From a virus, in the IMG/VR virus record IMGVR_UViG_3300032053_012801: 64,000 nucleotides of DNA, one strand, 5' to 3'. The notes under the pieces were generated by a model. It was not told the DNA's origin and did not search any database. It saw only the letters and a program-made list of their open reading frames with translations. Shown here one piece after another: positions 13,122-48,962 of this stretch. Every line of letters begins with the position of its first letter. Position 1 is the first letter of the stretch. Both the position numbers and the translations under genes were made by a program.

Positions 13122-13391
13122 CTACGTTATTTTTGACCAACATACTCGAGGAAGTCCACAAATACCAAAATCTTCACTAAAGAAAACAGATCTAACAGGG
13201 CTATTTACTCTTGAATCCCACATGATTTCGATAAGACCTACCGTACCCGCTTCAAATTGGTAAAACTGCTCTTCTAACATAATAATGTCACCATCTACAA
13301 TATCATCACTATACAACTTTCCCCACGCCTCACGTCTTTCTAGAGTGCTAAACTTCTGAGCTCTTTTTCTAGCTGCTTCACTTGAACTCAT
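13122..13391 (-). CDS. hypothetical protein
   Basis: 89-aa ORF. Confidence 0.35.
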   Translation of the reverse strand: MSSSEAARKRAQKFSTLERREAWGKLYSDDIVDGDIIMLEEQFYQFEAGTVGLIEIMWDSRVNSPVRSVFFSEDFGICGLPRVCWSKIT

Positions 13392-13406
13392 ATATTATCC
13401 TTACTT

Positions 13407-13490
13407 ATGCTGGAGAAGAGACTTGAACTCTTACGAGATTGCTCTCACTGGATTTTGAGTCCAGCGTGTATACCATTCCACCACTCCAGC
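13407..13490 (-). tRNA. tRNA-Leu (anticodon CAA), type II
   Basis: Acceptor GCTGGAG/CTCCAGC. Anticodon stem CTGGA/TCCAG with loop CTCAAAA. Long variable arm. T-loop TTCAAGT. Confidence 0.8.
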
Positions 13491-13976
13491 TCAATTTCTA
13501 TAATCTTCTTGATTTTTTGCAACAACGTTATTCTCAACATCCCAAAACACTTCTTTTTTAATCTCAACTTCATCGGGTTTCTTTGGCCACCATGTAACAC
13601 TATAATAAATCATAGTCTTTGACACGGGATCTGACATCATCTCGCAAACATTTTGCGAACTTGACGTCCCATCCAACGAAAACAAACCAGGCATAACCCT
13701 TCTTACTGGTAATCTAAGCGCATTCAACATTGTCGGACTTCCATCACTCATTCGTACATTTTGTGCATCGATAATCTGTTCTCTAGTATAATCACTAGTC
13801 TCAACCCATTTCTTCTTAAACTTCACAGGCACATTCTTTAACGCAGCTTCAATAACTTTCAAACACTCAGAACAATGATGAGGATCATTATACTCCGGCA
13901 TAAACCCATACGTACTTGGATGATACGTATACACGCAATTACAATGATCACACCTTTTAATTCTTGACGTTGTCAT
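13491..13976 (-). CDS. hypothetical zinc-ribbon protein
   Basis: 161-aa ORF with CDHCNC...HHCSEC at the N-terminus. Confidence 0.4.
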   Translation of the reverse strand: MTTSRIKRCDHCNCVYTYHPSTYGFMPEYNDPHHCSECLKVIEAALKNVPVKFKKKWVETSDYTREQIIDAQNVRMSDGSPTMLNALRLPVRRVMPGLFSLDGTSSSQNVCEMMSDPVSKTMIYYSVTWWPKKPDEVEIKKEVFWDVENNVVAKNQEDYRN

Positions 13977-14488
13977 AATAGTTTCAAATGCCCAGTAACT
14001 TCATCAATCTTCTCTGAATCATCAGGCCCAATAGCCAAACAAGTAATAGTCTTCACGCCCTTAAACTCAGTCAATCCACAATCCTCAATCAGCGCTACAG
14101 GCAAGCTCATGGATTCTGCCTTAGCCTTTATCTCTAACAGCTCAGCTTCTGAACTCACTTGCAAACAAATTTTAGTGAATATACCCTCCATCCACTCTCT
14201 CATTTGCCCAGTAACACTCATCATCGGCCTATCATCCAAATACTCAACCCTATCAAAAAACACTTTCATTGAAGCATGAGCGCCCTGAGCAATCATCTTG
14301 CCCTTCCTCATGTTCAAGTCAGTTCTCATGATAATTACTTGCTTGATCATAATATAGTCCTCTTCAATGCGTTCGTAAGTAGTAAATCTATGACCAAGTT
14401 CACATACACGACGTCGACGTAAACGATCACCTGATTCTCTAGAATCAATAACCTTGGTCTGTCTATGACACTGTGGACATGGTAGCAT
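13973..14488 (-). CDS. peptidyl-tRNA hydrolase PTH2-family domain preceded by an NrdR-like zinc ribbon
   Basis: The C-terminal ~125 aa read IIMRTDLNMRKGKMIAQGAHAS...LAIGP, which is PTH2-like. The N-terminal ~45 aa read CPQCHRQTKVIDSRE...RRRRVCELGHRFTTYE, which looks like a 4-Cys ribbon with an NrdR-like pattern. Confidence 0.5.
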   Translation of the reverse strand: MLPCPQCHRQTKVIDSRESGDRLRRRRVCELGHRFTTYERIEEDYIMIKQVIIMRTDLNMRKGKMIAQGAHASMKVFFDRVEYLDDRPMMSVTGQMREWMEGIFTKICLQVSSEAELLEIKAKAESMSLPVALIEDCGLTEFKGVKTITCLAIGPDDSEKIDEVTGHLKLL

Positions 14489-14669
14489 TAGATTTTATCA
14501 TCATAAGGTTCAAAATACGAATATCTTCGTTCTTAGTAATCCACTTAACAATATCATCTTCAGTACAACCAATCCCAGGATGAGAATTATCTATCAACCA
14601 ATTCAAATCTTCTTCAGTAAGCGCTCCAAACTGCTTCTCAACACCATTAACTATTGGATTACTTCTCAT
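14463..14669 (-). CDS. hypothetical protein (start trimmed to the internal Met)
   Basis: The track ORF 14463..14726 reads through tRNA exon 2. The internal ATG at 14669 has an AGGAG RBS 5 nt upstream. Confidence 0.35.
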   Translation of the reverse strand: MRSNPIVNGVEKQFGALTEEDLNWLIDNSHPGIGCTEDDIVKWITKNEDIRILNLMMIKSNATMSTVS

Positions 14670-14685
14670 AAGTCTCCTATAAAAA

Positions 14686-14989
14686 TGCCCGGGGCCGGAC
14701 TCGAACCGGCACGATCTTGCGACCAAGGGATTTTACTTGCTACTTCGTCTTTCGACGCCAGCTTTCGCTGTTTGTAGTCTGGACTTTGTCTTCACCATAG
14801 TGAGTTCACTTTAGGTGGATGCCGTTAAGTCTCTACACCTTCCAGTACTTTTCAGTACTAGCTTGGCTCGGCGTTGGGTCGAGTTTAACTCAGGCCGTTC
14901 ACCGAATTTGACATCTTACATCTATACCGTTTCCAGTATAGCGACCCATTTCTTCGAGTCCCTAGTGTCTACCGTTCCACCACCCGGGC
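14686..14989 (-). tRNA. tRNA-Leu (anticodon TAA) interrupted by a ~221-nt group I-like intron in the anticodon loop
   Basis: Exon 1 (14957-14989) reads GCCCGGG-TG-GTGG-AACGGTAGA-CACT-AGGGA-CT. Exon 2 (14686-14735) reads TAAAA-TCCCT-TGGTCGCAAGATCGT-GCCGG-TTCGAGT-CCGGC-CCCGGGC-A. Joined, they give anticodon loop CUUAAAA, as in cyanobacterial and plastid trnL-UAA. The intron (14736-14956) starts after a U that can pair with intron G (a short P1 with U.G), and it ends ...GUAGCAAG (terminal G). It contains AAGUCCAGACUACAAACAG, similar to the R/P7 element of the Anabaena trnL intron, plus two GAAA-tetraloop hairpins. Confidence 0.6.
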
Positions 14990-15004
14990 AATCATCTCAG
15001 CAGT

Positions 15005-15171
15005 TGAAGCAAGACTCGAACTTGCAATGTCAGATGCGTCTGTCTGCTCTGACCGTCAGTTATTGCCGTGAGACAGAGATAATGGTCTGGAATAATTCTC
15101 ATATCTTGCTCCATTATCTATCCTTCAATTGGCTTGACCTCGACGACGTCTACCAGTTTCGTCATTCAACT
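15005..15171 (-). other. split tRNA-like element, unresolved: Leu-like 5' half and canonical T-arm/acceptor 3' half separated by ~85 nt
   Basis: The 5' half reads AGTTGAA-TG-ACGA-AACTGGTAGA-CGTC (Leu-type D-loop). The 3' half reads GCAAG-TTCGAGT-CTTGC-TTCAACT-G, with a perfect 7-bp acceptor pairing between the two halves. No canonical anticodon arm can be placed. Confidence 0.3.
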
Positions 15172-15178
15172 GCATATT

Positions 15179-15255
15179 TGGTGGGCTCAGCTGGGATCGA
15201 ACCAGCGACTCCCTCGTTATGAGCGAGGCACTCTAACCAATTGAGTTATGAGCCC
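15179..15255 (-). tRNA. tRNA with anticodon CAT (second copy; Met/Ile2 type), CCA encoded
   Basis: Reverse complement reads GGGCTCA-TA-ACTC..GAGT-G-CCTCG-CTCATAA-CGAGG-GAGTC-GCTGG-TTCGATC-CCAGC-TGAGCCC-A-CCA. Confidence 0.8.
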
Positions 15256-15261
15256 GAAATT

Positions 15262-15483
15262 TCATTCAACATTAATAACTTGCATACTAGACGGAAACAA
15301 ACTAAGCGTGCCGTCACAGTTTCTCATTGCATTTTCATCTTTACTTCCGACAGATTGTCGTAACTTCGTAAAAACGTATTGACTTTTGCGAAAACCTCCG
15401 TGACCAGAATCATCACCATCTGTAGGAAATGAAATAAATGTAGCTCCTTCGTGCAGCTCCCCAAATGTCAAAGGAATACTCAT
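15262..15483 (-). CDS. hypothetical protein
   Basis: 73-aa ORF. Confidence 0.35.
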   Translation of the reverse strand: MSIPLTFGELHEGATFISFPTDGDDSGHGGFRKSQYVFTKLRQSVGSKDENAMRNCDGTLSLFPSSMQVINVE

Positions 15484-15809
15484 ATTTTTTTCAATGCCTC
15501 AGTAGCAATTTCTCTAAGATGATTTGGATCATTAGCAAGCGCAACAGCCATTCGACCATCAATTTGATAACCATCTTCTAATTCACGCTTTATCTTGTCA
15601 ATCGGTTGAATTACATCTTTCAATGCTTGAATTGTAATAGCTAACTTTTCTTTTTCTGTATTTTTAGATTTTTGAGCAACTTTGCCTAACCTCTCCCATG
15701 ACTGAACCATCTTGTCCATATACTTAACTTTGTCAGCAGTTTTAGCAAAACTTACCCACCAATATGATATCTGTTCCATAAACTGTTCAGCATTTCTACT
15801 CATTATCAT
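15480..15809 (-). CDS. hypothetical protein
   Basis: 109-aa ORF. Its RBS and start lie inside the ~67-bp direct repeat. Confidence 0.4.
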   Translation of the reverse strand: MIMSRNAEQFMEQISYWWVSFAKTADKVKYMDKMVQSWERLGKVAQKSKNTEKEKLAITIQALKDVIQPIDKIKRELEDGYQIDGRMAVALANDPNHLREIATEALKKI

Positions 15810-15811
15810 CC

Positions 15812-15878
15812 TCCAACTGAATCATATTGTCCCACTCTTTTATCAACCGATAAATCTTACACTCTTGTAGTGCTTTAC
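15812..15878. repeat. ~67-bp direct repeat, copy 1 (gene-junction module)
   Basis: ctccaactgaatcatattgtcccactcttttatcaaccgataaatcttacactcttgtagtgcttt is ~90% identical to 16222-16288. Confidence 0.6.
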
Positions 15879-16003
15879 CTCACGGATGCGACTGAATTGC
15901 ATGCTTTGCTTGATTTATCAAAACATGAAGAGCTTCTCTATCAATTTCTACCAACTGTTCTTTACTCTTAGCTAAAGCTTCTTCAGCTTTCTTAACAGCT
16001 TCA

Positions 16004-16216
16004 TCAGCCCACATCATTCACCTCCCTATAAAACTCACAAAGATTTTCATCTAATTTAGCTGGCTCCCAGCCTTGACCACATTCTAAATATTTGGGAAAT
16101 AAATTCTCTTTTGCAAATGTGATCACTGCTACATTTTCTGTAGCTTTTGCTGTCAAAAGAAGTTTTCTGAACTGCTCTTCATCATGTTCGTTGTGCAACG
16201 CAGCTATTATTGACAC
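16004..16216 (-). CDS. hypothetical protein
   Basis: 70-aa ORF. A GTG start lies just downstream of repeat copy 2. Confidence 0.35.
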   Translation of the reverse strand: MSIIAALHNEHDEEQFRKLLLTAKATENVAVITFAKENLFPKYLECGQGWEPAKLDENLCEFYREVNDVG

Positions 16217-16218
16217 AA

Positions 16219-16476
16219 TTACTCCAACTGGATCATATCATCCCACTCTTTTGTCAACCGATAAATCTTACACTCTTGTAGTGCTTTCGCGCATCGTCTC
16301 AATGACTCAACATGAGGTCCCTTCATGTCATTGATAAACGCTTTCTCAACCATCATCCTATATAAAGTAGGTGCTACAACTGTCAATAGATTTTCATATC
16401 CAAAAGCCTTAATTAGTTGCTTCTCTTTCTCACTATAATCTTTAGTTCGATCAACGTCACATTGATACTGCTTCAT
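16219..16476 (-). CDS. hypothetical protein (C-terminus encoded by repeat copy 2)
   Basis: 85-aa ORF. The C-terminal ...ALQECKIYRLTKEWDDMIQLE is encoded by the repeat. The same peptide is found out of frame at copy 1, which looks like a remnant. Confidence 0.4.
   Translation of the reverse strand: MKQYQCDVDRTKDYSEKEKQLIKAFGYENLLTVVAPTLYRMMVEKAFINDMKGPHVESLRRCAKALQECKIYRLTKEWDDMIQLE
16222..16288. repeat. ~67-bp direct repeat, copy 2
   Basis: ctccaactggatcatatcatcccactcttttgtcaaccgataaatcttacactcttgtagtgcttt. Confidence 0.6.
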
Positions 16477-16489
16477 TATTATTCCTTAA

Positions 16490-16570
16490 TGCAACGGAGA
16501 GGATTTGAACCTCCACGAATTTCTTCACTGGATTCTGAGTCCAGCGCGTCTCCCATTCCGCCACCGTCGC
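16490..16570 (-). tRNA. tRNA-Leu (anticodon CAG), type II
   Basis: Acceptor GCGACGG/CCGTTGC. Anticodon stem CTGGA/TCCAG with loop CTCAGAA. Long variable arm. T-loop TTCAAAT. Confidence 0.8.
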
Positions 16571-16759
16571 TCATTTTCTTCGTAGTAACGTATACACTTG
16601 AAAGCATAAATTTGCAGCGTTCACTGCGCAAACAATGCAGGGAATAAAAATCATCAAAGCAATTGAAAATGACGGAGGCTGTTCGCAAACTCTCAATATT
16701 CGCGTAGTAAAAAGCAACTGTGCTGCAGACAAAAGAACGAAGTAAAAATTGTTTTTCAT
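16571..16759 (-). CDS. hypothetical small membrane protein
   Basis: 62 aa, hydrophobic. It abuts the tRNA 5' end. Confidence 0.3.
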   Translation of the reverse strand: MKNNFYFVLLSAAQLLFTTRILRVCEQPPSFSIALMIFIPCIVCAVNAANLCFQVYTLLRRK

Positions 16760-16792
16760 AAGTCTATAGTCAATCTAAGTCTCAATGACTAA

Positions 16793-17401
16793 TCATGAAT
16801 CTCTCTCGACTGACATACTTCCGTCGTCACACAAATCCATCAAATTTTGAGCTCCTCCGTCACCAGTCCTTAACTGCGACTTTGCCTCAAATACTGCTTG
16901 ATCACCGATCAAACTATTGAGATCCCAAACTGAATTAAATCCAACTTTGAATACATGCTCCCAACACTTGTTCTCTTTTACTGTCGCAACTACACTCAAA
17001 CTATCTAAATCAACAGACTTAACAATCAATACAAGATCACCCGTGTGACCAATAATTTTTCCCGGCACTACATATTTACGCAACATACTTTTAACTTTAG
17101 CTCTATCTTGAGCCTGTCGAGCTCTAGCTACTTTCTTCTGCTCCATCATCTCAATAACTGACTCAACTTTGAAATTCGGATTCCATATAACTTTATCTTC
17201 ATTAGTTGAAATTACTGCACCACAATTCTTGAGACTCGATAATGTCATTCGTAATAGTTTCTGTATCTCATTATCTGATTCTTCATTTAGCAAATACTGA
17301 TATTGCTTGAATGAATTCTCAGGGAAGAATCCAAATATCCGACCAATCTTGTATAAAGCTGCTTCTATCGAATTCTCAGTCTTCAAAAACTCATTCAACA
17401 T
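16793..17401 (-). CDS. hypothetical protein
   Basis: 202-aa ORF. Confidence 0.45.
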   Translation of the reverse strand: MLNEFLKTENSIEAALYKIGRIFGFFPENSFKQYQYLLNEESDNEIQKLLRMTLSSLKNCGAVISTNEDKVIWNPNFKVESVIEMMEQKKVARARQAQDRAKVKSMLRKYVVPGKIIGHTGDLVLIVKSVDLDSLSVVATVKENKCWEHVFKVGFNSVWDLNSLIGDQAVFEAKSQLRTGDGGAQNLMDLCDDGSMSVERDS

Positions 17402-17690
17402 TTTTCACCTCCGGTAATCCAAAATCATGCCTTAAATGACTACAAAGCTCTCCCTCTTTAGTCTCTAAATTCAACCACTGTCCACATACAGTGCAACCTA
17501 TAGCATTCGGCTTCAAGTCGTGTTTCTCTATTTGCGAGAAAGCTTCTAATAGCTGTTTTTCAGGCGGTATTCGAAGCTGTTTATTAATGAGACATACTGA
17601 TGAATCACGTTCTACATTACATCCCTCAGGTTGTTCAAACCACGTACAATCCGGACACTTACCGTGACCAGCAGCTTGTTCGTGAGACAT
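17391..17690 (-). CDS. hypothetical Cys-rich (zinc-binding) protein
   Basis: 99 aa with CPDC...C..C pairs. A GAGGA RBS lies before the ATG. Confidence 0.4.
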   Translation of the reverse strand: MSHEQAAGHGKCPDCTWFEQPEGCNVERDSSVCLINKQLRIPPEKQLLEAFSQIEKHDLKPNAIGCTVCGQWLNLETKEGELCSHLRHDFGLPEVKNVE

Positions 17691-17875
17691 TTATTATCCT
17701 CTTCTTGTACAATTTGAGCCCGAGCATCATAATAATGTAATTCAAGACCACTACTTCTTGCTCGACATTCTTTACATTCAACAGTACGTGAAATATCAAC
17801 AGGTTCATTGGTACCAACAATACTGCTATCGCACAGCAATTCTTTTGTAACAGGATTTGCAAGATGAACTGTCAT
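17612..17875 (-). CDS. hypothetical protein (overlaps the downstream gene by ~79 nt)
   Basis: 87-aa ORF. The overlap makes the exact boundaries uncertain. Confidence 0.25.
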   Translation of the reverse strand: MTVHLANPVTKELLCDSSIVGTNEPVDISRTVECKECRARSSGLELHYYDARAQIVQEEDNKCLTNKLLVTVSVRIVRGLNNLRDVM

Positions 17876-18223
17876 TTTGGCATTTCGATTATAGCTTCAC
17901 CAAAAGTCATAATATCAATCATTGCTTGACTAATGGCCTTATCAAAATAATCTTTATGCTTGTTGAATGTATTTCGTATCACACGTTTTTGTCTTTTCGA
18001 CAGATTTTTTGGATACTTAAACCTGAAGTTCATTTGTATCTCCATCACACTTGGGTAACCGAACTAATTTCGGATAAAATGTCCTATGACTAAGAACATC
18101 ATTATACTTCACGCAAGTGTGTATGTTCTTATTGTTTGGAAATCTCTCTTGACCATTTTCTGGCGGGGAAATAAAGTCGCAATCTTCTTTACAAAAATGC
18201 ATGTCTTTGCCCCTGAACTAAAG

Positions 18224-18310
18224 TGGCGGAGAGTGTAGGATTCGAACCCACGGAGCTATTAACTCATCAAGGTTCAAGCTTGACGCCATAAACCACTCGG
18301 CCAACTCTCC
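18224..18310 (-). tRNA. tRNA-Ser (anticodon TGA), type II, CCA encoded
   Basis: Reverse complement reads GGAGAGT-TG-GCCG-AGTGGTTTA-TGGC-G-TCAAG-CTTGAAC-CTTGA-(long variable arm)-GTGGG-TTCGAAT-CCTAC-ACTCTCC-G-CCA. Confidence 0.85.
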
Positions 18311-18567
18311 AACGTTCTCGCTATTGCTTGAAGACATGATATACGCCCCACAAAACAGTCATCATAAATGCATAACCCATCATGTCTTTATCATTCTTAC
18401 TAATCGCAATTAGCGCACAAACAATCCAACTCAATATCACTATTGTCAATCCCGGATGCGCAAAAATGATATTCATATTAGTTAGTTTCAAAAAGTAGTA
18501 ATCGCCATATTTTTAGTAAGTCTCTGCTACGTCCCGTGACGACTATGACGGGAAACGATTACTACAG

Positions 18568-18951
18568 TTACTGTCGTTCAATCATGAAAAAATCTCTAAT
18601 ATCTAACAATCCTAATCCAGATGGATGCGGGTCATGTACTAATTTGCCTTCATAAAAAACTACTGAATGTCCTCGCTTAAATCCTCGAGGGCTCTTACCA
18701 TTTACTATATAGTAGCCATCTACTCCTTTACGATAACTGCCAACTTCCTCTTTTCTACCAGTACCAAAACACGTAAAACCTCGACTTATCAAAAAATCCC
18801 ACAATACCGGAAACCAATTTGATCCCATATCTTGCAATTTAGGTATCTCATCTAATCGCAACTCTAAAATCGACGCAATACAAGCCGGAAAACAATTACC
18901 ATGAATACCCTTTTCTTCATCACTAATAATTGTCTGGTATACCCTTATCAT
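18568..18951 (-). CDS. hypothetical protein
   Basis: 127-aa ORF. Confidence 0.4.
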   Translation of the reverse strand: MIRVYQTIISDEEKGIHGNCFPACIASILELRLDEIPKLQDMGSNWFPVLWDFLISRGFTCFGTGRKEEVGSYRKGVDGYYIVNGKSPRGFKRGHSVVFYEGKLVHDPHPSGLGLLDIRDFFMIERQ

Positions 18952-18967
18952 AGTTCCTCGAATAATA

Positions 18968-19229
18968 CTCTCGCTCGGACTTGAACCGAGATAGCGTTAG
19001 CAAAGTTCCTATTAGGAAACGCGATTCCTGCCGCACATAAACCCTCTGGGACTGTTACCAGATTCCCAGCAGCGTGTCAGTTCTGCCGCAACCTTGGAAC
19101 TTCCTTAACTTCGAGCCTAATCTTACGACTAGTAAAGTCTCATAAAGACTTACTCTAATTAAGTCTAACACTCCTTTTACAGTACCGGTTCGTTTTTACC
19201 GGTGCTTTACCGTTAAGCTACGAGAGTAA
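18968..19229 (-). other. split tRNA-like locus, unresolved: tRNA-like 5' module and canonical T-arm/acceptor 3' module ~185 nt apart
   Basis: The 5' module reads ACTCTCG-TA-GCTT-AACGGTA-AAGC-A-ACCGGT-(8-nt loop AAAAACGA)-ACCGGT. The 3' module reads CTCGG-TTCAAGT-CCGAG-CGAGAGT-A. The acceptor pairing between the modules is 7/7. The intervening ~185 nt contain a strong hairpin and an AAAGGAG motif. No tmRNA-type tag ORF is present. Confidence 0.3.
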
Positions 19230-19238
19230 AACTGATAA

Positions 19239-19311
19239 TAGCGGCACTACGAGTCGAACGTAGGTTGAAAGTTTATGAGACTTTCCAGACCACCGGGCCT
19301 AGCCTACCGCA
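19239..19311 (-). tRNA. tRNA with anticodon CAT (third copy), 1-72 mismatch
   Basis: D-stem CTAG/CTGG. Anticodon stem AAAGT/ACTTT with loop CTCATAA. T-arm CTACG-TTCGACT-CGTAG. Acceptor (T)GCGGTA/TGCCGC(T) with T.T at 1-72. Confidence 0.6.
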
Positions 19312-21260: not shown

Positions 21261-21270
21261 ATAAATTCAG

Positions 21271-21360
21271 TGGCCCCGGCAGGATTTGAACCTGCGATGT
21301 GAGCCGTAAGCTCAGACAGATTAAAAATCTGTTACCCTCGATCCGCTAGGTGACGGAGCC
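21271..21360 (-). tRNA. type II tRNA (Ser-like D-loop, 5-bp variable-arm hairpin) carrying anticodon TTT; identity uncertain
   Basis: Reverse complement reads GGCTCCG-TC-ACCT-AGCGGATCGA-GGGT-A-ACAGA-TTTTTAA-TCTGT-C-TGAGC-TTACG-GCTCA-CATC-GCAGG-TTCAAAT-CCTGC-CGGGGCC-A. A long variable arm combined with a Lys anticodon is a non-canonical pairing. Confidence 0.5.
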
Positions 21361-27331: not shown

Positions 27332-28495
27332 TTATGCTTTTATGACAGCTAATGGTGAAAGTTCTACTACAATATCCACCAAATCTTTTTGATTGTCCAT
27401 AACAACACTTATGTCTTTGTAAGCACCGGCAGCTTCATCTAAGTCAGCTTTATTTCGAATGGCATGAATGATGCCTTGATCATCAAGTAGTTTCTTTTCG
27501 GCATCTAAATTCAATTCTCTTTGTGCTTGTTTCCGTCCCATTTTTCTACCAGCACCGTGCGAGCATGACATGAATGAATCTTCATTACCTTTGCCACGTA
27601 CTACATAGCTTTTTGTACCTTGAGAACCGGGTATCAATCCGATTTGATCTTTTCTGGCTGATGTCGCACCTTTTCTGTGAACAATGACATCTTCACCAAA
27701 ATGATGTTCCCAAGCTGCATAATTGTGATGAATGTTGATTGTTTCATCAAACGTAATTCCTGAAATATCAAAAGATTGTTTTATTGTGTCAATCATTCGA
27801 AATCTGTTCTCTTTTGCAAACTCAAGTGCAAACTTCATGACATCAAAGTATTCATGTGCTTCTTTTGTTTCCATTGGAAGAAACGAAAGGTCTTTGTCGG
27901 GTATACTCGAATACCATTTCTCGCATAGCCATTGTGCTTTCTTATGATATTCATTGGCTATTTTCAAGCCAAAATTCCGAGAACCAGAATGTAGCATGAC
28001 CCAAACAAAACCATCTGATCCCTTTTGAATCTCAATGAAGTGATTGCCACCTCCTAGCGTACCAAGCTGAGTCTGTGCTGTACTCAATTGCTGTTGAATA
28101 ATTGCTACATTAGGTGCTCGATCAAACCCTTCCCACGATATTTTCTCTTTGTGATGTTCGAATCCTACAGGGACTGCTTCACGAATCCTTCCCATTGTCT
28201 TTTTCAATTCATCTTTGTCAATTGATTGCAATGACGTCTTAACTGCACACATGCCGCAACCAATGTCAACACCAACAGCATTTGGAACTATGACGCCTTT
28301 GGTTGCCATAACGCCGCCAATTGGCATCCCGTAGCCAACGTGCCCGTCAGGAGACAAAGAAATATGACTAAATACAAAAGGTAATATTGCCAAATTCTCT
28401 ACTTGTTTAACCATTGCATCATCAGCATAATAGCTACTTTCGTTCATCCAGACTTTTACTGGCACACGAAATTGATCTTTTTTATATGAAAACAT
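27332..28495 (-). CDS. rtcB: RtcB-family RNA-splicing ligase (3'-phosphate/5'-OH RNA ligase)
   Basis: PDGHVGYG, DIGCGMC, GGGNHF, HNYAAWEHH, HRKGATSA and SHGAGR: the full set of RtcB metal- and GTP-binding motifs. Confidence 0.9.
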   Translation of the reverse strand: MFSYKKDQFRVPVKVWMNESSYYADDAMVKQVENLAILPFVFSHISLSPDGHVGYGMPIGGVMATKGVIVPNAVGVDIGCGMCAVKTSLQSIDKDELKKTMGRIREAVPVGFEHHKEKISWEGFDRAPNVAIIQQQLSTAQTQLGTLGGGNHFIEIQKGSDGFVWVMLHSGSRNFGLKIANEYHKKAQWLCEKWYSSIPDKDLSFLPMETKEAHEYFDVMKFALEFAKENRFRMIDTIKQSFDISGITFDETINIHHNYAAWEHHFGEDVIVHRKGATSARKDQIGLIPGSQGTKSYVVRGKGNEDSFMSCSHGAGRKMGRKQAQRELNLDAEKKLLDDQGIIHAIRNKADLDEAAGAYKDISVVMDNQKDLVDIVVELSPLAVIKA

Positions 28496-31067: not shown

Positions 31068-31239
31068 TATCTACACCTTTCAAAAATTCTGTATAACATC
31101 GCGCAGAACAGCATCTGTGATTTGCTGGTATGTCTCCGTATACACGCGTCGATTCTTTGACATTGAATGATTTACTGCAGACTCTACAGCTTATGTTTTT
31201 AGCCATAGTATAATAGTCAATTAGAATAGCTATGAAAAA

Positions 31240-31311
31240 TGCCTCGAGCCAGATTTGAACTGGCGATAACGGTTTTAGAGACCGTCACTTTGACCGCTAA
31301 GTTATCGAGGC
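31240..31311 (-). tRNA. suppressor tRNA (anticodon CTA, reads UAG amber)
   Basis: Reverse complement reads GCCTCGA-TA-ACTT-AGCGGTCA-AAGT-G-ACGGT-CTCTAAA-ACCGT-TATC-GCCAG-TTCAAAT-CTGGC-TCGAGGC-A. This is a clean class I cloverleaf with anticodon 5'-CUA-3' at positions 34-36. Confidence 0.75.
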
Positions 31312-31318
31312 ATTTCCA

Positions 31319-33771: not shown

Positions 33772-35013
33772 TCATGCAACTAATGGCTGACGAGAAGGCA
33801 CTCGAACCCCTAAGCGGTTGCCCGCACAGCATGTCATATATCTATTCACGAGCCGTCTAACTTGTGTATGTGAGACATTCCATTTATTACTAAGATTTTC
33901 GACTGTGCCACGCTTTGTAAAATCACTTTGTAAAATGTCTTTAGTTTGTTGTGCAGTTCTAGCTTGTTGCTCTAGCTTTTTTATTTGTTGCTTTTCAATT
34001 TTTAATTGATCACGATTTATTTCAAACTCTGTCAATAGTTGTAACCGTCTAGCTTGTGCTTTAGTGAAAGTATCTAGTCTTAATTCAAAGTTTTGTGAAT
34101 TATTCAAAATGTCTTTAATTTCATCATAAATTACTTCATGATTATGATGCACATCTTTCCATCTTATCCTTAAAACTTTAATGTCATGATTTTTCAAATA
34201 TTCATCTTTTCGTTTATCTCGTTCTCGTATTACATCATATTTTACATGTTGTTCACCATCAATCTCAATTACAAGTTTATGTTTTGGAAAATAAAAATCT
34301 GCTCTATAAATAGAAAATGGAAATTCTGTAAAAAAATCAACATTTTCTTTCAATCCTAACTTAACTAAAAATTCGTGAAATTTACTTTCAGCATATGATG
34401 GCTTCTTTCTTGTCCAACTATAAGCAATTCCATTTTGTCTAGCTTTTAATATTGATTGTCTAATCTTATCTTTTGTTGCTTTAGAAAGCTTAAATGTCTC
34501 TGGATGATTTTTATATCTAGCTTTAATAGAATCAGACAAAGATCGTCTTTTATGACTTAATGAAAAACTAATGACCCTTTTGTCATATCCTTTCGCTCTT
34601 ATATCCCTTGGTGATAAGCCTAGATTATATAACTTGATTATACTTTCACGAACTTCTTCACTTACACAAGTATGTTTATAAAGATTTACAACACTAATTG
34701 TTCTTTTACATTTTTCACACATCACTTTCTTAGCAAAATTACTATTGATATTATGATATTTTTTTCTATTAGGGTTTGTATGGGCAATTTTATTTGTCTC
34801 GCTATCACTTCGTAATATGTCTTTGACAACTGCATGAATTTCATTTCTTGTGAAACAATATTTTTTCTTGATATCTGAAATTAACAACTTATTTTTATAA
34901 TCTGATCTAATGAGTTCACATTCTTTTGGATGCTTAACATAAAGACAACTATTACGATGAATAGCATGCGCTCCTGCATTTTTGAATGATTTACCGCATT
35001 TACATATGTTCAT
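33772..35013 (-). CDS. DUF559/Vsr-like endonuclease-domain protein with zinc fingers and coiled-coil tail (homing-endonuclease-like)
   Basis: ...KLVIEIDGEQHVKYDVIRERDKRKDEYLKNHDIKVLRIRWKD... The C-terminal ~25 codons (..NRLGVRVPSRQPLVA) are GC-rich and look like translation of a tRNA-derived remnant. Confidence 0.5.
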   Translation of the reverse strand: MNICKCGKSFKNAGAHAIHRNSCLYVKHPKECELIRSDYKNKLLISDIKKKYCFTRNEIHAVVKDILRSDSETNKIAHTNPNRKKYHNINSNFAKKVMCEKCKRTISVVNLYKHTCVSEEVRESIIKLYNLGLSPRDIRAKGYDKRVISFSLSHKRRSLSDSIKARYKNHPETFKLSKATKDKIRQSILKARQNGIAYSWTRKKPSYAESKFHEFLVKLGLKENVDFFTEFPFSIYRADFYFPKHKLVIEIDGEQHVKYDVIRERDKRKDEYLKNHDIKVLRIRWKDVHHNHEVIYDEIKDILNNSQNFELRLDTFTKAQARRLQLLTEFEINRDQLKIEKQQIKKLEQQARTAQQTKDILQSDFTKRGTVENLSNKWNVSHTQVRRLVNRYMTCCAGNRLGVRVPSRQPLVA

Positions 35014-38226: not shown

Positions 38227-38928
38227 ATGTGTAAAGAGCTGTACTTAGATTTGCTGAAGCGATCGTTGCTTGACATAATATATGAAGAAGAGACGACTCA
38301 TACAACTAATGGTACGTATTGGCCTAAGCGAGCGTTCACTATGATAGGCCGTAAACGACTTGACAATATACAACATTGTGTCGAAAGTGTTATAGCAAAT
38401 GATGTGCAAGGTGATCTAATTGAAACCGGTGTGTGGCGTGGTGGTGCTGTAATTTTTATGCAAGGTATTTTGAAAGCATACAATATTACAGATCGAAAAG
38501 TGTTTGTAGCTGATTCTTTTCAAGGTTTGCCTGCGCCTAATACAGAAAAGTATCCAATTGACAAGAATAGTACTATGCATACCATTGACTATTTAAGAGT
38601 TGATGTTGATCAAGTAAAGCATAATTTTGAAAAGTATGCATTACTAGACACTAATGTAGTATTTCTAAAGGGTTGGTTCAAAGATACTCTTACAAATAGT
38701 ATGATAGATAAAATTGCTGTATTGAGATTAGATGGTGACTTATATGAGTCAACTTGGGATTCATTAACTGCGTTATATCATAAAGTCCAGAAAAATGGGT
38801 TCGTTATTATTGATGATTATAACTGGGTAAATTGCAGAACAGCTGTTGAAGATTTTAGAAAACTACATAATATTCACGATCCGATCGTCATTATTGACGC
38901 TTGGGGAGCATACTGGAAAAAATCATGA
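38227..38928 (+). CDS. TylF/MycF-family (macrocin-O-methyltransferase-like) sugar O-methyltransferase
   Basis: LIETGVWRGGAVIFM...LRLDGDLYEST is the diagnostic TylF/MycF pattern. Confidence 0.6.
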   Translation: MCKELYLDLLKRSLLDIIYEEETTHTTNGTYWPKRAFTMIGRKRLDNIQHCVESVIANDVQGDLIETGVWRGGAVIFMQGILKAYNITDRKVFVADSFQGLPAPNTEKYPIDKNSTMHTIDYLRVDVDQVKHNFEKYALLDTNVVFLKGWFKDTLTNSMIDKIAVLRLDGDLYESTWDSLTALYHKVQKNGFVIIDDYNWVNCRTAVEDFRKLHNIHDPIVIIDAWGAYWKKS

Positions 38929-39503
38929 ATAGAACAGACATCATCAATTTCTACACAAGCAAAAAACAAAATTGTCGTTATCTTGAAATAGGCATTGGAA
39001 ATGCATCTGCCAATTTCAACAAAATTAGTGCTGCAGTAAAAGATGCAGTTGATCCTGTAAATCCCTGTAATCATCTTATGAGTTCTGATGCATTTTTCTC
39101 AAGTAATACTAGTCAATACGATATCATTTTTATAGACGGCGATCACAAAGCAGCTCAAGTGATCAAAGACATTTCAAATTCACTAAAATGTTTGAGTACT
39201 GACGGAATTATACTTTTACATGATTGTAATCCTGAATTAGAAGTTCATCAAACAGAGAACATTACTGTGTCTCATTGGAACGGATCAGTTTGGAAAGCAA
39301 TATTGTTTTATAGAATGTTTGATCCTAATTTGTCAATCTGTACTATTGATGTAGATGAAGGCATTGGAATTATAAAGCCAGGACAGCAAGAATTATTTGA
39401 ATGTGCTGAAACAATGTTTGATTTTGCTTTTCTTTGTAAGTATAGAAAGCAAATACTCAATTTACTAACTGTGCAAGAGTGGCAATTGATGGAGCAACGA
39501 TGA
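38901..39503 (+). CDS. class I SAM-dependent methyltransferase (CmcI/O-MTase-like)
   Basis: YLEIGIGNASANF (motif I) and IIFIDGDHK (motif II-like). Confidence 0.5.
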   Translation: MGSILEKIMNRTDIINFYTSKKQNCRYLEIGIGNASANFNKISAAVKDAVDPVNPCNHLMSSDAFFSSNTSQYDIIFIDGDHKAAQVIKDISNSLKCLSTDGIILLHDCNPELEVHQTENITVSHWNGSVWKAILFYRMFDPNLSICTIDVDEGIGIIKPGQQELFECAETMFDFAFLCKYRKQILNLLTVQEWQLMEQR

Positions 39504-40438
39504 TCTATACTATGTCTTATTGGCATTGGTATAAGTACTGTAGTATTGAAGTCAAAAATATTACAGCAGATGTTGAACCAAGTAAAGATGATTGGTTTGT
39601 AGTATTTCAACCTTATGATGCTGCTCGCAGAGAACTAGTATCAGCAGTCATTGACAGATTTGACTATTCAAAACGAGTATTGATTCATTACGAGGGTCGT
39701 TATCGTCAGCCTCATGGATTTAGACTAAGATATCAGCAAAAGTTTGGAAGAATCTATACTTATAATTCGACTGATGTTGATGGTGACACTGTTAAATATA
39801 TGCCGATACCGATGTGGATTACTGAAGATGAATGTTGTCCAGTCAATAACCGATCAAAATTCATTGGTACTGTTATAACCAACTATTTTCGTGATGGTGA
39901 GCCAAGAAACACTATAATTCGCAAGTTCAAAGATTTGGGTATGGATGTTTATGGAAGTTCAGATAAACCAGTACCATTAGAAATTAAGAAAGATTCTAGT
40001 GATGCTTGCGACAAAAACTTACCGCGATATTCTGCTAAAGTGAAACTGCTATCAGACTATACGTTTGCTTTTGCTATAGAAAGTCAATTAGATTTGGGTC
40101 ACTTGACTGAAAAACCGTTCGATTTGATAGCAGCTGGTTGTATACCTGTTTATTTAGGGCCAAAAGATGCGTCAACATTTATTCCTAAAGAGTGCTACGT
40201 TGATTACAGAGATTTCTGGTCTGAAGCTGATCTAATGAAATATCTTAAAAGCATGTCGCGACAAAAAATTCAAGAGTATCAGCAATCAATTGCAAAACAT
40301 CAAAAAGTCTTAGTTGGTATGAGAACTTTTGAGTCATGCATGAGATTTCTATGTAAAGACTTAGGATTTGACTGTCAGTCACATTATCACGATCAATTAT
40401 TAGAACTGTCAAATATACTTGCAACAAGGACAAAATAA
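39479..40438 (+). CDS. GT10-like glycosyltransferase (alpha-1,3-fucosyltransferase-like)
   Basis: FAFAIESQLDLGHLTEKPFDLIAAGCIPVYLGP resembles the GT10 AFENS...TEK...G.VPVV motif block. Confidence 0.45.
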   Translation: MAIDGATMIYTMSYWHWYKYCSIEVKNITADVEPSKDDWFVVFQPYDAARRELVSAVIDRFDYSKRVLIHYEGRYRQPHGFRLRYQQKFGRIYTYNSTDVDGDTVKYMPIPMWITEDECCPVNNRSKFIGTVITNYFRDGEPRNTIIRKFKDLGMDVYGSSDKPVPLEIKKDSSDACDKNLPRYSAKVKLLSDYTFAFAIESQLDLGHLTEKPFDLIAAGCIPVYLGPKDASTFIPKECYVDYRDFWSEADLMKYLKSMSRQKIQEYQQSIAKHQKVLVGMRTFESCMRFLCKDLGFDCQSHYHDQLLELSNILATRTK

Positions 40439-40968
40439 TGAAGTTACATTTAGGTTGCGGCAAACGATATATCCCTGGCTATACGCACATTGATGTTATA
40501 GAATACCCTCATATTGATATAGTGAATAGTGTTGATCGTCTACCAATGATTGAAGATGAATCATGTGATGTAGTTTATAGTTGTCATGTATTAGAGCACT
40601 TTCACAAAAAAGTCATTATAGATGTTCTTCATGAATGGTTAAGAGTGCTAAAAGTAAATGGTACATTGAGAATATCTGTGCCAGATATGCAAAGTCTACT
40701 TAAAGTATATGAGAAAACAGATGATATTTCATTAATACTAGGCCCTATATTTGGTAGGTGCAATTACTTGTACAATTTTCACTATACAGGATTTGACTTT
40801 AAGTCTTTGAAACATGTACTTGAATTAGCAGGTGCAAAAGATATTAGACGTTATGATTGGAGACTAACAGAGCATGCAGATGTTGATGACTACAGTCAAG
40901 CATATATTCCACAAGATAAAATAAATGGAACTCTTATTAGCTTAAATGTAGAAGCGACAAAAGTATGA
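40438..40968 (+). CDS. class I SAM-dependent methyltransferase (Methyltransf_11-like)
   Basis: HLGCGKRYIPGYTHID...SCHVLEHF. Confidence 0.5.
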   Translation: MKLHLGCGKRYIPGYTHIDVIEYPHIDIVNSVDRLPMIEDESCDVVYSCHVLEHFHKKVIIDVLHEWLRVLKVNGTLRISVPDMQSLLKVYEKTDDISLILGPIFGRCNYLYNFHYTGFDFKSLKHVLELAGAKDIRRYDWRLTEHADVDDYSQAYIPQDKINGTLISLNVEATKV

Positions 40969-43900
40969 GCGTGTTTTTATCTGACTTAACAGTTTTTGTC
41001 ATAAGTAGCGGTCATAATCCTTGCTATGACGCATGCTTGCAGTCATTAAACTCTCAAACAGTTTCATTCAAAGTCGAGATTATCAAAAACGTTCATCCAA
41101 TGTCAAGAGCTTTTCAGTGCATGATAGATTCTTGCAAGACTCGATACTATATTGAAATTGATGAAGATATGGTCATGAATGCAAACGGTATTGAAACCTT
41201 ACACAAGTATGCTGTTGAATCTGCACCAATGACAGCTATGATTGCTTGTAAGTTGATTGATGTACATTTGAATTTTGAAATTTATGGTGTCAAGATTTAC
41301 AAGCACGACATACTTAAGAGATATCCATACGACTTGTCCTCAATGTCGTGCGAAGTTGAACAAATGGATAGAATGAAAAATGACAAATATGAAATTACAT
41401 TAATGACTAATGTAGTTGGCCAGCATGCACCATATTGGTCTAATGAAGGAATATTTGATAGATATCGTAATTTACTTGACAAATTCAAACAGTTCAAATA
41501 TATCTGGATGAGTGACCTACCTGTAAAGTTATGGTCAATGTTGAAAGCTGAACCAACTGAACAGAATTTATATGCTTTACTTGGTGCATATACAAGTCTG
41601 ATTACAGACGCTGTTCAAGTTGGTGAGAAAGACTTTAGAAACAGAAATACATCGTTTGAAACAATGAGAAGTTTTATGAATCCACCTGTTAGTGCAAACC
41701 TGTATCTAACATCAAAATGTAATTTCAACTGCAGATTTTGCTATCGTAATTCGCAATCAATTGAACAGTCGATTGACATGACACTAAAAAATGTCAGTGA
41801 TCTGTTAATCAAACATCCATCAATTAGAGGCGTTTGTTGTGCTGGCTACGGAGAACCTTTTTTATGTGATAGTCTTTTTGACATCATATCATTTCTAAAA
41901 TCAAGAAACAAAGTTGTTGGACTAATAACAAACGGATCACTAATAGTTGAAAAAATCAATAGCCTATTAGCAAACAGACCAGACTATATATCTATAAGCT
42001 TAAACGCGTCAAATGCAAAGATGCATAATGAAATAAACAAATCATTGATATTTAATACTGTCTTACAAGGAATAGGACTCTGCGTAAGTAATGGTTTACC
42101 CACGTATTGTTCCTACGTATGCACAAAAAGTAATCTACGATATATTCCTGAATTTTTGACGTTAGTGAACTCTTTAGGTGTAAAGACTGTGCACTTATTA
42201 AATCTGTTACCGCACTTAGCAAGCGATTATAATGACGAGTCGTTTTGGCAAGAAGTGTTAACATATGATGACAAGCATAAAATTGATGCATTACAAGATC
42301 TGCCCGAAGCTAATTTGATTAAGGTATTTCCGACATTAATAAACCGTAATGAAGTTCGTTGCAATTGTCAAATACCTTGGACTACAATAGGAATAAACGG
42401 CAATGGTAGTGTAACATTTTGCGGATCAGTTTATGCACCAAATAGAGCTAATGGATCACTTAAGAATTTTGAAAATGTTTGGTTAAATGATAGTGCTAGA
42501 AAACTAAGAGACAGTTTATGTGACGTTAATAAGATGACAGACACATGCAAAATGTGTTTCAGAAATTGGGATGAATATAAGCCACTAACAAAACAAATAG
42601 TAACACAGTCTAAACCAGTTCCTAAAAAGCTTAGAATTTGCAAAATAATTGACCAATTTGGTTGGGCATACTATTTTGTAGCAAAAGAACAACAACTGTA
42701 TTCTTCGCATGATATCACATACAAACGATTAATCGATGTCACTGACATAGATGCAGACATAGTGTACATTCATGCACCAAATATTGATCATGCTAAAATC
42801 AACAGTCTAGTTTCAGTATTAAAACAAAAAGGCATCAAAGTTATTGGTGGTTATGGTGGAGAATCAAAACTAAAATATGACACTGACCCAGATCTTATAG
42901 TGTCAATATCTATGAGACATCTGGACTGTTTGAACAACATGTATCCTAATAAGTCTGTAGCGTTTCTACCAGAATCAATTGATACCAACTTCTTTACTGC
43001 AGCCGTGAAAGATGACAATAACTTTATAGTTGGTTGGGCCGGTTGTTTGCGTGATGTAAAGCGACCACATTTACTAAATAAACTAAAATTCAATGTTATT
43101 AAGAAAAGTGACTGGGGCAAGCAGTTTTTCTCTGATGGTAGATCATTAAATGACATGAAGTTATTTTATCACTCAATTGATGTACTAGTATTGACAAGTA
43201 TTAGCGAGTGTATGCCAAGAGTAGTATTAGAGGCCATGTCTTGTGGATTGCCTGTAGTTTCAACAAGGGTTGGTTGTATAGGAATGTTGTTAGATAAAGA
43301 ATGGATCGTAAGTACATTGCCTGAAGAAAATGTTATTTCAGAAATGAACAATCGATTGTCATTACTTAGTAATAGTAAGTCACTGCGACAAGAAGTAGGT
43401 AAGAGAAATAGACAGTATATTTTGAAGTTTTTTAGTTGGGCCGCTAATCAAAGTTTATGGGATAAAGCGTTTGAATTAATTATGCAAAACAAATTCAAAG
43501 ACATAAAAAATCTTGGCGATGAATTCATACAGTCATTACCAAATTCAAATGAATTAACATTCGACAACTTAGAAGTACAAACTGAGCAAACTACTTTTTC
43601 AGAATTAATTCAATGTGAACTAGCAAAACCAGTAACTAAACCGCAAATACAAATTGAACATGAACCGTTGAAATTGCAACCCATATCTAACATAGCAAAA
43701 ATCGAATGTGTTCCTGACATAGCAAAAGTTGAATGTGCTGATGACATAGCAAAAGTCGAATGCGCTCCTGTGATATCTAGATTAGTAAAACCATTATTCA
43801 TATCTTACTACACAAAAAATACAGGCTATGAAAACGAATATAAGAAGTTGGAAGCTTCATTAAGGCGATTCAATTTAGATTATGAAATTGTCGGTATTAA

Positions 43901-48645: not shown

Positions 48646-48962
48646 GTCATCCTCCTTATATCATCTCGCCATGGACAAGCTGAACTCCAAGTACAAACTG
48701 AATCAATCAGATATCTACAAGAATCTTTACACGTGCAGCACGGAGCTCGTTTTGTTATACCTTTGATTATAGTTAATCCTGTCTTTTGCCATAGATCTCG
48801 AGGGTCGATTGCTTTTTGTTTGCGAACTTGAAATGTAGACTGAGCATGTTCAATAGCTTTTTTAACTTGTTGTGAAGTCATACAGAAATACGTCGCACAG
48901 TACACCATCAAATCTTGACGACTAGTCCAATAGTATACTGTTTTTCGATTATCATTTATCAT
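48642..48962 (-). CDS. hypothetical Cys-rich protein
   Basis: 106-aa ORF. Confidence 0.35.
   Translation of the reverse strand: MINDNRKTVYYWTSRQDLMVYCATYFCMTSQQVKKAIEHAQSTFQVRKQKAIDPRDLWQKTGLTIIKGITKRAPCCTCKDSCRYLIDSVCTWSSACPWRDDIRRMT

Follow-up and report, generated by a model that had tools for sequence, protein, structure and literature searches.

A tRNA-Leu(UAA) gene split by an IC3-like group I intron in the tRNA array of a probable phage

Is a tRNA gene with an insertion in its anticodon loop a working gene when it lies in a viral tRNA array, or is it a wreck? The question is raised by positions 14,686 to 14,989 of a 64,000-nucleotide (nt) stretch from the IMG/VR virus record IMGVR_UViG_3300032053_012801; the whole stretch of 64 kb is termed the window. 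The original prediction, made from the letters alone, had claimed that a group I intron interrupts a tRNA-Leu(UAA) gene. An Rfam match, the recovery of a split gene by ARAGORN and covariation among related introns sustained this claim. We consider it highly likely that the locus is a functional intron-containing tRNA-Leu(UAA) gene which resides in the tRNA array of a large phage of low G+C content and is transcribed with the surrounding minus-strand genes. Judged by its sequence, the intron looks intact and is very probably self-splicing.

The gene is easily overlooked. Plain ARAGORN reported 30 tRNAs in the window and skipped the split locus. When ARAGORN was run with intron detection, a check proposed with the prediction, tRNA-Leu(taa) with an intron of 221 nt was recovered. 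The gene has three parts:

14989-14957, minus strand: 5' exon of tRNA-Leu(UAA), 33 nt, GCCCGGGUGGUGGAACGGUAGACACUAGGGACU; tRNA positions 1-33, last base U33 (ARAGORN intron detection).
14956-14736, minus strand: group I intron, 221 nt, IC3-like, without an open reading frame (ORF); begins CGAAGAAAUGGGUC, ends GUAGCAAG.
14735-14686, minus strand: 3' exon of tRNA-Leu(UAA), 50 nt, UAAAAUCCCUUGGUCGCAAGAUCGUGCCGGUUCGAGUCCGGCCCCGGGCA; positions 34-73, first base U34.

In a longer reading the intron termini are CGAAGAAAUGGGUCGC at the 5' end and GAAGUAGCAAG at the 3' end. The 3' exon starts with UAAAAUCCC and ends with CCCGGGCA; CCA is not encoded. The joined exons make up a type II tRNA-Leu of 83 nt. 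In the spliced sequence ARAGORN drew an acceptor stem of 7 base pairs (bp) and a D stem of 3 bp; the anticodon stem is AGGGA/UCCCU, the loop CUUAAAA, and a long variable arm, a T arm, A73 and the anticodon UAA are present. This is what had been foreseen, i.e. exons 221 nt apart which rebuild a type II tRNA-Leu with this very loop.

The splice register is single. A 7-nt anticodon loop is restored solely when the 5' exon ends in ACU, the intron in G and the 3' exon begins with UAAAA, which places the intron between positions 33 and 34, as predicted. The canonical 34/35 insertion was ruled out because a C follows U33 and a U follows the terminal G, and no other register results in a 7-nt loop. 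The label '34-35' which ARAGORN assigned to the window intron is an artefact of one extra acceptor-stem base pair. Further support for the splice sites comes from the G at the intron 3' terminus and from the final U of the 5' exon, which is paired to a G. Three viral contigs (L400, L401 and L402) have, in their tRNA arrays, tRNA-Leu(UAA) genes without an intron that share about 90% identity with the window exons. The 5' exon is 91% identical to the 5' half of these intron-less genes, and all three carry a contiguous 29-mer, AGACACTAGGGACT directly followed by TAAAATCCCTTGGTC, which is the exact predicted ligation junction. Thus, intron presence varies among closely related tRNA genes. With this, the anatomy of the gene and its exact junction are established. 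The split gene is the sole tRNA-Leu(UAA) in the window, which has a G+C content of 37.5% and in which UUA accounts for 25% and UUG for 31% of the Leu codons (UUR together 57%).

Does the intervening sequence qualify as a group I intron? The Rfam Intron_gpI covariance-model search, the second check that had been proposed, gave 53.6 bits for RF00028 (gathering score 50) at 14966-14756 on the minus strand. The model was matched over its full length, 1-253, with E = 8.4e-11 in the whole window and E = 6.6e-13 in a local search. This is the only non-tRNA Rfam match in 64 kb, and a P3-P7 core can be folded. The structure was drawn by hand from the Rfam alignment; numbers denote intron nt, and P1 adds exon positions 30-33. 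Every drawn pair from P1 to P9a is Watson-Crick or G.U. For covariation, 24 non-redundant viral tRNA introns were aligned with MAFFT (alignment A1, to which the counts below refer). The elements are, all on the minus strand:

14943-14947, minus strand: internal guide GGGUC, nt 10-14, read from the sequence.
14922-14941, minus strand: P2 hairpin, 8 bp with a GAAA tetraloop, nt 16-23 with 28-35; 8/8 pairs doubly changed; recovered by RNAfold.
14910-14915, minus strand: P3 5' strand GAUGUC, nt 42-47 with 134-139 (14818-14823); 100% of cells paired, 4/6 pairs doubly changed.
14818-14823, minus strand: P3 3' strand GGCAUC, nt 134-139, from alignment A1.
14837-14905, minus strand: P4-P5-P5a-P6-P6a domain, nt 52-120; P6a is GAAA-capped, P4 is 100% paired, and 8/8 P6a pairs covary.
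14827-14833, minus strand: P7 5' strand, G, a bulged A and GACUU; pairs with 14781-14786; presumed guanosine-binding helix, 100% paired.
14781-14786, minus strand: P7 3' strand AAGUCC, in agreement with AGUC of the Rfam consensus.
14793-14817, minus strand: P8 with the internal loop CCUAAAG/CUAUGG, nt 140-143 with 161-164 plus a distal stem; pairs covary.
14740-14777, minus strand: P9.0 (CUAC/GUAG) enclosing P9 (CAGC-GAAA-GCUG) and P9a (CGUC-GAAA-GACG), from covariation.
14736, minus strand: terminal guanosine (omega-G, G221), adjoining the 3' splice site; kept in those relatives in which the boundaries can be fixed.

P1 consists of G30-C14, A31-U13, C32-G12 and the wobble U33.G11, with C1-G10 and G2.U9 as an extension. 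The wobble of U33 with GGGUC and the intron-terminal G, both part of the original prediction, are present in the sequence. In the central domain P4 is formed by nt 52-57 with 84-89, P5 by 61-62 with 79-80, P5a by 66-69 with 73-76, P6 by 90-92 with 118-120 and P6a by 96-103 with 108-115 around its GAAA loop. P7 joins nt 124 and 126-130 to 171-176, with A125 bulged, and forms a pseudoknot with P3. Its pairs G124-C176 and G126-C175, on either side of the bulge, are invariant in 24/24 sequences, and this helix would bind the guanosine. P9.0 pairs nt 180-183 with 214-217; AAGUCCAGACUACAAACAG comprises the P7 3' strand and P9.0, and its likeness to the group I core holds against the Rfam consensus and many relatives. 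Two GAAA hairpins had been predicted at the P8/P9 positions. They exist; their placement had to be revised because they are P9 and P9a, and two more GAAA loops cap P2 and P6a. The unconstrained centroid fold, in which a pseudoknot is not possible, recovered P2, P3, P4, P5a, P6a, P8, P9.0, P9 and P9a (z = -3.56 versus shuffles). The architecture fits what is expected of subgroup IC3, to which the intron is tentatively assigned: a compact fold with neither P2.1 nor P5abc, in which the P2 and P9 tetraloops would dock to P8 and P5. The internal loop of P8 resembles the 11-nt GAAA-tetraloop receptor. IC introns account for 81% of bacterial tRNA introns (PMC13011429).

The alignment spoke clearly for this fold. 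With the window structure imposed, 92.6% of the cells were paired; when the 3' partners were slid by 1-3 columns pairing dropped to 27-44%. Both sides had changed in 40 of the 64 pairs. None of 500 shuffles reached the observed values, a statistic which is inflated by kinship of the sequences while the slid controls and the counts of distinct pair types are unaffected. In P2, P6a, P9 and P9a every pair covaries. P5 alternates between GG/CC and CC/GG among the relatives, P9.0 between CUAC/GUAG (13 sequences) and CCAC/GUGG (11 sequences), and P4 and P7 are mostly invariant. The guide tracks the insertion site: it is GACU/GGUC for Leu at 33/34, ACUU/GAGU for Leu at 34/35 and GCCU/GGGC for Arg(UCU) at 33/34. 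Family membership and covariation are established by these data.

Is the gene in use? The only close relative of the window is contig L028 (IMGVR_UViG_3300035659_001474), a 128-kb IMG/VR viral contig which is syntenic with window positions 13239-19260, about 6 kb. Its aligned flanks are mostly ~80-87% identical to the window; one stretch, described below with the element at 18965-19228, reaches 96%. L028 has the same split tRNA-Leu gene, so conservation in a relative is established; the introns are 89% and the exons 87% identical. The differences are telling. In the tRNA, acceptor pair 6-67 changes from G-C to A-U, anticodon-stem pair 29-41 from G-C to A-U and T-stem pair 50-64 from C-G to U-A. 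In the intron, two pairs of P9 have changed with full compensation (A-U to G-C and C-G to U-A), and wobble-compatible changes are located in P6a and P9a. Length changes are confined to the P1 loop, P5a and the tip of P8, and no helix is broken. Compensatory changes in both the intron and the tRNA stems indicate selection on the ribozyme fold and on the fold of the mature tRNA, which is sensible only if the intron is removed. This sequence comparison argues that the split tRNA-Leu is a working gene and not a wreck.

How would splicing proceed? The 221-nt intron is predicted to fold into a compact IC3-type group I ribozyme. In P1 the guide GGUC would pair with G30-A31-C32-U33 of the exon, where the wobble U33.G11 would mark the 5' splice site, and P3-P9 would constitute the catalytic core around the guanosine pocket of P7. 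The GAAA loops of P2 and of P9/P9a may clamp the fold via the receptor-like P8 loop and P5. By analogy with the Azoarcus ribozyme, the P2 loop would dock onto the CCUAAAG/CUAUGG loop of P8, and the P9 or P9a loop onto P5. In the first step an exogenous guanosine, held at the P7 G-C pair, would attack the phosphodiester bond after U33. In the second step G221 would replace it in the pocket and the 3'-OH of U33 would attack before U34. A candidate P10 has about 2 bp (U34.G10 and A35-U9) and varies in relatives; the exon anticodon stem probably holds the 3' exon instead, as it does with group I introns of other pre-tRNAs. In the Anabaena pre-tRNA the exon anticodon stem substitutes for P10 (Zaug et al. 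1993, as cited in PMC3984707). The predicted product is an 83-nt tRNA-Leu(UAA) which would need CCA addition and would read UUA and UUG. A scan for sigma-70 promoters gave nothing on the minus strand near the split gene; we assume that it is co-transcribed with the array.

A mobile group I intron is expected to have a homing endonuclease encoded within or beside it. Here, the 221-nt intron contains no sense-strand ORF of 30 amino acids (aa) or more, and in the ORFs beside the split tRNA no endonuclease domains were found, as predicted for the intron itself. One neighbour (13973-14488, minus strand, one small ORF downstream of the split tRNA) encodes a fusion protein in which an NrdR-type zinc ribbon is joined to a PTH2 peptidyl-tRNA hydrolase; the others are unknown ORFs. 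A plus-strand ORF of 135 aa at 14815-15222, antisense to the intron and to a tRNA-Met, has no Pfam match and was treated as spurious. The longest intron among the relatives, 401 nt in contig L264, likewise is ORF-less; expansion of its peripheral stems accounts for the length. Most simply, such an endonuclease-less intron would be a tolerated passenger, inherited with its tRNA gene and occasionally gained or lost.

Next to the question of function stands that of distribution. Megablast of window positions 14000-16000 against 50,697 phage records had no match, i.e. there is no close sequenced relative among those records. In a sensitive blastn search of GenBank phages the pre-tRNA was detected in its entirety in two metagenomic phages of 735 kb, LR756501 and LR756503. 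The tRNA-Leu(UAA) gene of the uncultured phage LR756501.1 (L001 1496-1786) has an intron of 205 nt, inserted at 34/35, and lies in a record without annotation. The cultured Agrobacterium phage Atu_ph07 (490 kb; MF403008.1 ~112,890-113,251; L398 1460-1821) also has an unannotated split tRNA-Leu(UAA). Its intron of 278 nt is group-I-like and inserted canonically between U34 and A35; the 'hypothetical protein' AUZ94936.1 overlaps the 3' part of the tRNA gene. Seven tRNA-gene introns were compared with the Rfam gathering score, including that of the window, which passes; four (L001, L398, L094 and L322) are below it. The same IC3-like core is present in capsid-gene introns of Pelagibacter phage HTVC120P (L003 1463-1655) and of the uvDeep deep-sea podovirus KM23-C739 (L004 1461-1641 and 2170-2350), at 71-76% identity. 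In KM23-C739 both copies are significant in Rfam, with 78 and 77 bits.

IMG/VR was scanned with the J6/7-P7 core AAGGTGYAGAGACTYRACGG, and matches were classed by intron-aware ARAGORN. Among the matches listed, 74 of 123 on viral contigs were inside tRNA genes. Most of the listed split tRNAs are tRNA-Leu(UAA) at 34/35; the others are Arg(UCU) at 33/34 and at 34/35, Lys(UUU), Thr, Ser and further types. At least three further tRNAs are nearby at 32 of the 80 split-tRNA loci listed; some of the IMG/VR contigs may be proviruses with host tRNAs at their ends. A second pattern, AGACRC....GACT{4,16}GGGTC, was too unspecific: among the 120 stretches listed there were only 2 new true matches, and L028 was found again. 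It was replaced by a viral-contig pattern anchored on UCAAAUUCGG. For 22 of its 31 viral matches, located outside tRNAs, brute-force exon joining found no tRNA; these are probably introns in protein-coding genes.

Some ARAGORN labels need correction. Nine IMG/VR contigs (L012, L037, L067, L069, L076, L107, L110, L122 and L123) contain 76-nt tRNAs which the program called tRNA-Phe(GAA), and C is the last base of the intron in its reading. If the guide GAGU and the terminal-G rule are followed instead, the splice site moves one base later and the anticodon becomes UAA. With its short variable arm this would be an odd reader of Leu codons without a type II arm. Similarly, the tRNA-Leu label is wrong for L251 and L259 (IMG/VR) and L351 (Gammaproteobacteria AqS3); according to the terminal-G rule these genes encode tRNA(CAU), and their introns are inserted at 33/34 and use the guide GGGUC.

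The 33/34 site is not peculiar to the window element, as it is also used in tRNA-Leu genes of Gammaproteobacteria, Desulfobacterales and Alphaproteobacteria. A scan of bacterial genome contigs had 10 true matches among the 120 listed, the rest being mostly chance, so bacterial prevalence is not quantifiable from it. Within it, tRNA-Leu(UAA) split at 33/34 with the guide GGGUC occurred in at least four metagenome-assembled genomes (MAGs) of Gammaproteobacteria, in one Thiotrichales MAG and in one Desulfobacterales MAG. Three of the Gammaproteobacteria/Thiotrichales cases are on complete chromosomes (OZ241844.1, OZ244045.1 and OZ242023.1). Among the matches listed, tRNA-Leu(CAA) is split at 33/34 in two Alphaproteobacteria, and one tRNA(CAU) is split as well. 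The window intron is 74-89% identical to the viral copies versus 60-65% to the bacterial 33/34 Leu copies. In a crude neighbour-joining tree without support values it groups with L028, L262, a viral tRNA(CAU) 33/34 intron and tRNA-Lys introns; the main viral clade of Leu 34/35 introns and the bacterial Leu introns at 33/34 stand apart. Tentatively, this grouping hints at a repeated origin of Leu introns at 33/34 and at movement of introns from one tRNA species to another.

To which known introns is it closest? It resembles the cyanobacterial and plastid trnL(UAA) intron in its host gene, in its location in the anticodon loop, in its length class (~200-250 nt), in being ORF-less, in the core motifs UCAAAUUCGG, CCGAGCCAAG, AAGGUGUAGAGACU and AAGUCC, in the U.G pair at the 5' splice site and in the terminal G. 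It deviates from it by insertion one nt upstream (33/34), by the guide pairing GGUC/GACU instead of GAGU/ACUU, by residence in a phage tRNA array and by its grouping with viral tRNA(CAU) and tRNA-Lys introns in the crude tree. The host gene is that of the canonical intron, the insertion is not at U34/A35, and the window intron is filed in the wider tRNA-intron family and not as a positional orthologue of the trnL(UAA) intron. The position 33/34 is shared with bacterial tRNA-fMet and tRNA(CAU) introns, and is the usual site of the bacterial (cyanobacterial) tRNA-fMet introns (PMC13011429). The tRNA(CAU) introns of L251, L259 and L351 even have the guide GGGUC and the 5' exon GACU of the window. 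The host tRNA is different, though. The Synechocystis tRNA-fMet intron is reported to carry a homing endonuclease (reference list of PMC3984707), which the window intron lacks. A 2026 survey of 4,934 bacterial genomes located group I introns at nearly every position of the anticodon loop (PMC13011429).

With the Azoarcus intron the element has in common a compact P2, P3-P9 and P9.0, GAAA tetraloops and a CCUAAG/UAUGG-like receptor in P8; the host tRNA and the anticodon-loop site are different. As a lead, long core stretches would be identical to the published Azoarcus sequence: GUCAAAUUCGG, CAACGCCGAGCCAAGC, GAAGGUGUAGAGACU and CACCUAAG...CUAUGG. The introns in phage protein genes (T4 td, nrdB and sunY; Twort; the SPO1/Bastille polymerase) are phage-borne self-splicing group I introns, as the window intron would be. 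They interrupt mRNAs and often carry a homing endonuclease, whereas the window intron interrupts a tRNA and has none.

The literature is scant on this point. A 2014 review stated that all phage group I introns then known were in protein-coding genes despite many phage tRNA genes (PMC3984707), and a 2021 review of jumbo phages mentions introns in protein genes only. A 2018 preprint on Lak megaphages described unclassified 'enigmatic' tRNA introns and guessed that they may be common in large phages (bioRxiv 10.1101/356790). Like the window intron these are tRNA-gene introns of very large phages; no class was assigned to them, while the window intron clearly is group I. A full-text search outside subscription journals turned up no publication in which group I introns of phage tRNAs are described. 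The original prediction had called such an intron unusual in a phage tRNA array. This applies to the searchable literature; it does not apply to the data, in view of the 74 listed viral-contig matches inside tRNA genes. We count the window intron as a new addition to the small IC3-type group I introns known from tRNA anticodon loops; its host context, a phage tRNA array, is one on which very little has been published.

Several points weigh against a functional phage gene. The Rfam score exceeds the threshold by only 3.6 bits, P10 is weak (~2 bp), and formation of P1 is in competition with two pairs of the anticodon stem, the lower ones. The IC3-like label is a tentative one, drawn from the architecture and from a probable likeness to the Azoarcus and Anabaena introns. 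Splicing, catalytic activity, tertiary contacts and expression are what we infer from sequence. Might then a once-splicing intron have decayed, leaving a disrupted tRNA pseudogene which is carried along in the array? The marginal score (53.6 vs 50) and the lack of a homing endonuclease to maintain the intron would be compatible with such a relic. Yet low scores are typical of this subfamily, as the four introns below the gathering score demonstrate, and every core pair is intact. The substitutions between window and L028 are compensatory or wobble-compatible in the intron and in three tRNA stems, which is unexpected for a pseudogene, and the locus holds the sole tRNA-Leu(UAA) of a window in which UUR codons are heavily used. 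We regard decay as very unlikely. A functional gene of bacterial origin is a different matter: the window could be a tRNA-array island or a prophage flank, and its intron an ordinary bacterial tRNA intron. The 64-kb window contains no virion genes, i.e. no capsid, terminase or tail genes; the case for a phage origin is built on gene content and on the class that IMG/VR gives to L028, and the same type of 33/34 tRNA-Leu(UAA) intron is located on bacterial chromosomes. On the other side, the 31-32 tRNA genes share a single strand and are scattered between small unknown ORFs, accompanied by RtcB, an NAD-dependent ligase, PolX, PTH2, an HNH/DUF559-type endonuclease inside the array and several families known from PHROG only. 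L028, the nearest relative, is a viral contig of 128 kb with 6 kb of synteny, and the intron is nearer to viral than to bacterial copies. The window is probably a phage, and a bacterial source is highly improbable.

A functional intron in a phage gene could also be more than a passenger. It might be kept because it shields the gene or the pre-tRNA from anticodon-loop enzymes, which might be tRNA-gene-specific homing endonucleases or host anticodon nucleases, or because it delays the supply of tRNA-Leu(UAA). Conservation in the diverged L028 is in line with a benefit, as is the frequency of split tRNAs in viral contigs, often in arrays (the 32 of 80 listed loci above). Three products encoded in the window fit a conflict over tRNAs: RtcB, which is a ligase for tRNA repair, PTH2, and the DUF559/HNH-like endonuclease whose gene lies in the array. 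But the mature spliced tRNA would still be a nuclease target, and the existence of alleles without the intron, for nearly the same tRNA in other phages, shows that this tRNA can do without it. We judge a benefit of this intron to the phage to be unlikely and prefer the functional tRNA-Leu(UAA) gene with a tolerated intron. A broader proposal is speculative and rather doubtful: endonuclease-less group I introns in phage tRNA genes might be widespread and kept by selection, and arrays may move them between tRNA species and between bacterial phyla. They might then protect tRNA genes or pre-tRNAs from anticodon-loop enzymes or time the tRNA supply. If true, array shuttling among Leu, CAU, Lys, Arg, Thr and Ser tRNAs would explain the patchy bacterial distribution.

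The chemistry of the intron is ordinary; it is the location in phage tRNAs which is under-recognised. A single sequence pattern brought up dozens of viral-contig loci with a split tRNA and led to the unannotated tRNA-Leu genes of Atu_ph07 and of a 735-kb phage. Such tRNAs are overlooked by plain ARAGORN, by the GenBank annotation of Atu_ph07 and, for four of the seven introns compared, by the Rfam gathering score. Therefore, phage tRNA repertoires are undercounted. With short ribozymes and natural intron-plus and intron-minus alleles the loci constitute a tractable system. They bear on why endonuclease-less introns persist in streamlined viral genomes and on whether phages shuttle tRNA introns among bacteria.

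A second structured RNA in the array was overlooked by plain ARAGORN. At 18965-19228 on the minus strand is a tRNA-derived element with an acceptor stem, a D arm and a T arm; the D arm is 96% identical to that of tRNA-Ile of Vibrio jumbo phages. In place of the anticodon arm there is a perfect hairpin, ACCGGU-AAAAACGA-ACCGGU with an 8-nt loop, which is followed by a folded insert of ~170 nt (z = -5.0). ARAGORN with intron detection read it as tRNA-Gly(UCC) with a 178-nt intron, and the L028 copy as tRNA-Arg(UCU). The two copies differ in two bases, the third 'anticodon' base (UCC/UCU) and the first acceptor base, in flanks of ~80-86% identity. The element has no family match in Rfam and is not group I; possibly, it is akin to the 'enigmatic' Lak-phage tRNA introns. 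RtcB is encoded near this element. The gene for this RNA ligase (27332-28495, minus strand; phrog_1075, E = 2e-119) is located in the tRNA-rich region, and its closest IMG/VR relatives are 53-59% identical. Retrieval of a near-identical contig by way of RtcB gave none, the best being 59%.

Other parts of the array merit mention. A 413-aa DUF559/HNH-like endonuclease is encoded between tRNA-Asn and tRNA-Phe (33772-35013, minus strand); it may be a free-standing homing endonuclease in the tRNA array, reminiscent of T4 SegB. A 91-nt type II tRNA at 21270-21360 (minus strand) has a long variable arm, A73 and the anticodon UUU (Lys) on a Leu/Ser/Tyr-like body, and its charging identity and anticodon may be mismatched. 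An amber-suppressor-type tRNA with the anticodon CUA is at 31239-31312 (minus strand). Of 55 long ORFs in the window, 14 still have TAG as their stop codon, and a recoding of TAG is therefore not obvious.

Outside of the array, a plus-strand block at ~35.6-45 kb includes a sugar-modification-like gene set (38227-44351) with a TylF-type O-methyltransferase, a GT10 fucosyltransferase-like protein and an 1128-aa fusion of radical SAM/SPASM with a GT1 glycosyltransferase. Further along, the minus strand encodes a family X DNA polymerase with a PHP domain (PolX-PHP, 48962-50635) and an SPFH/flotillin-like protein (51502-52911).

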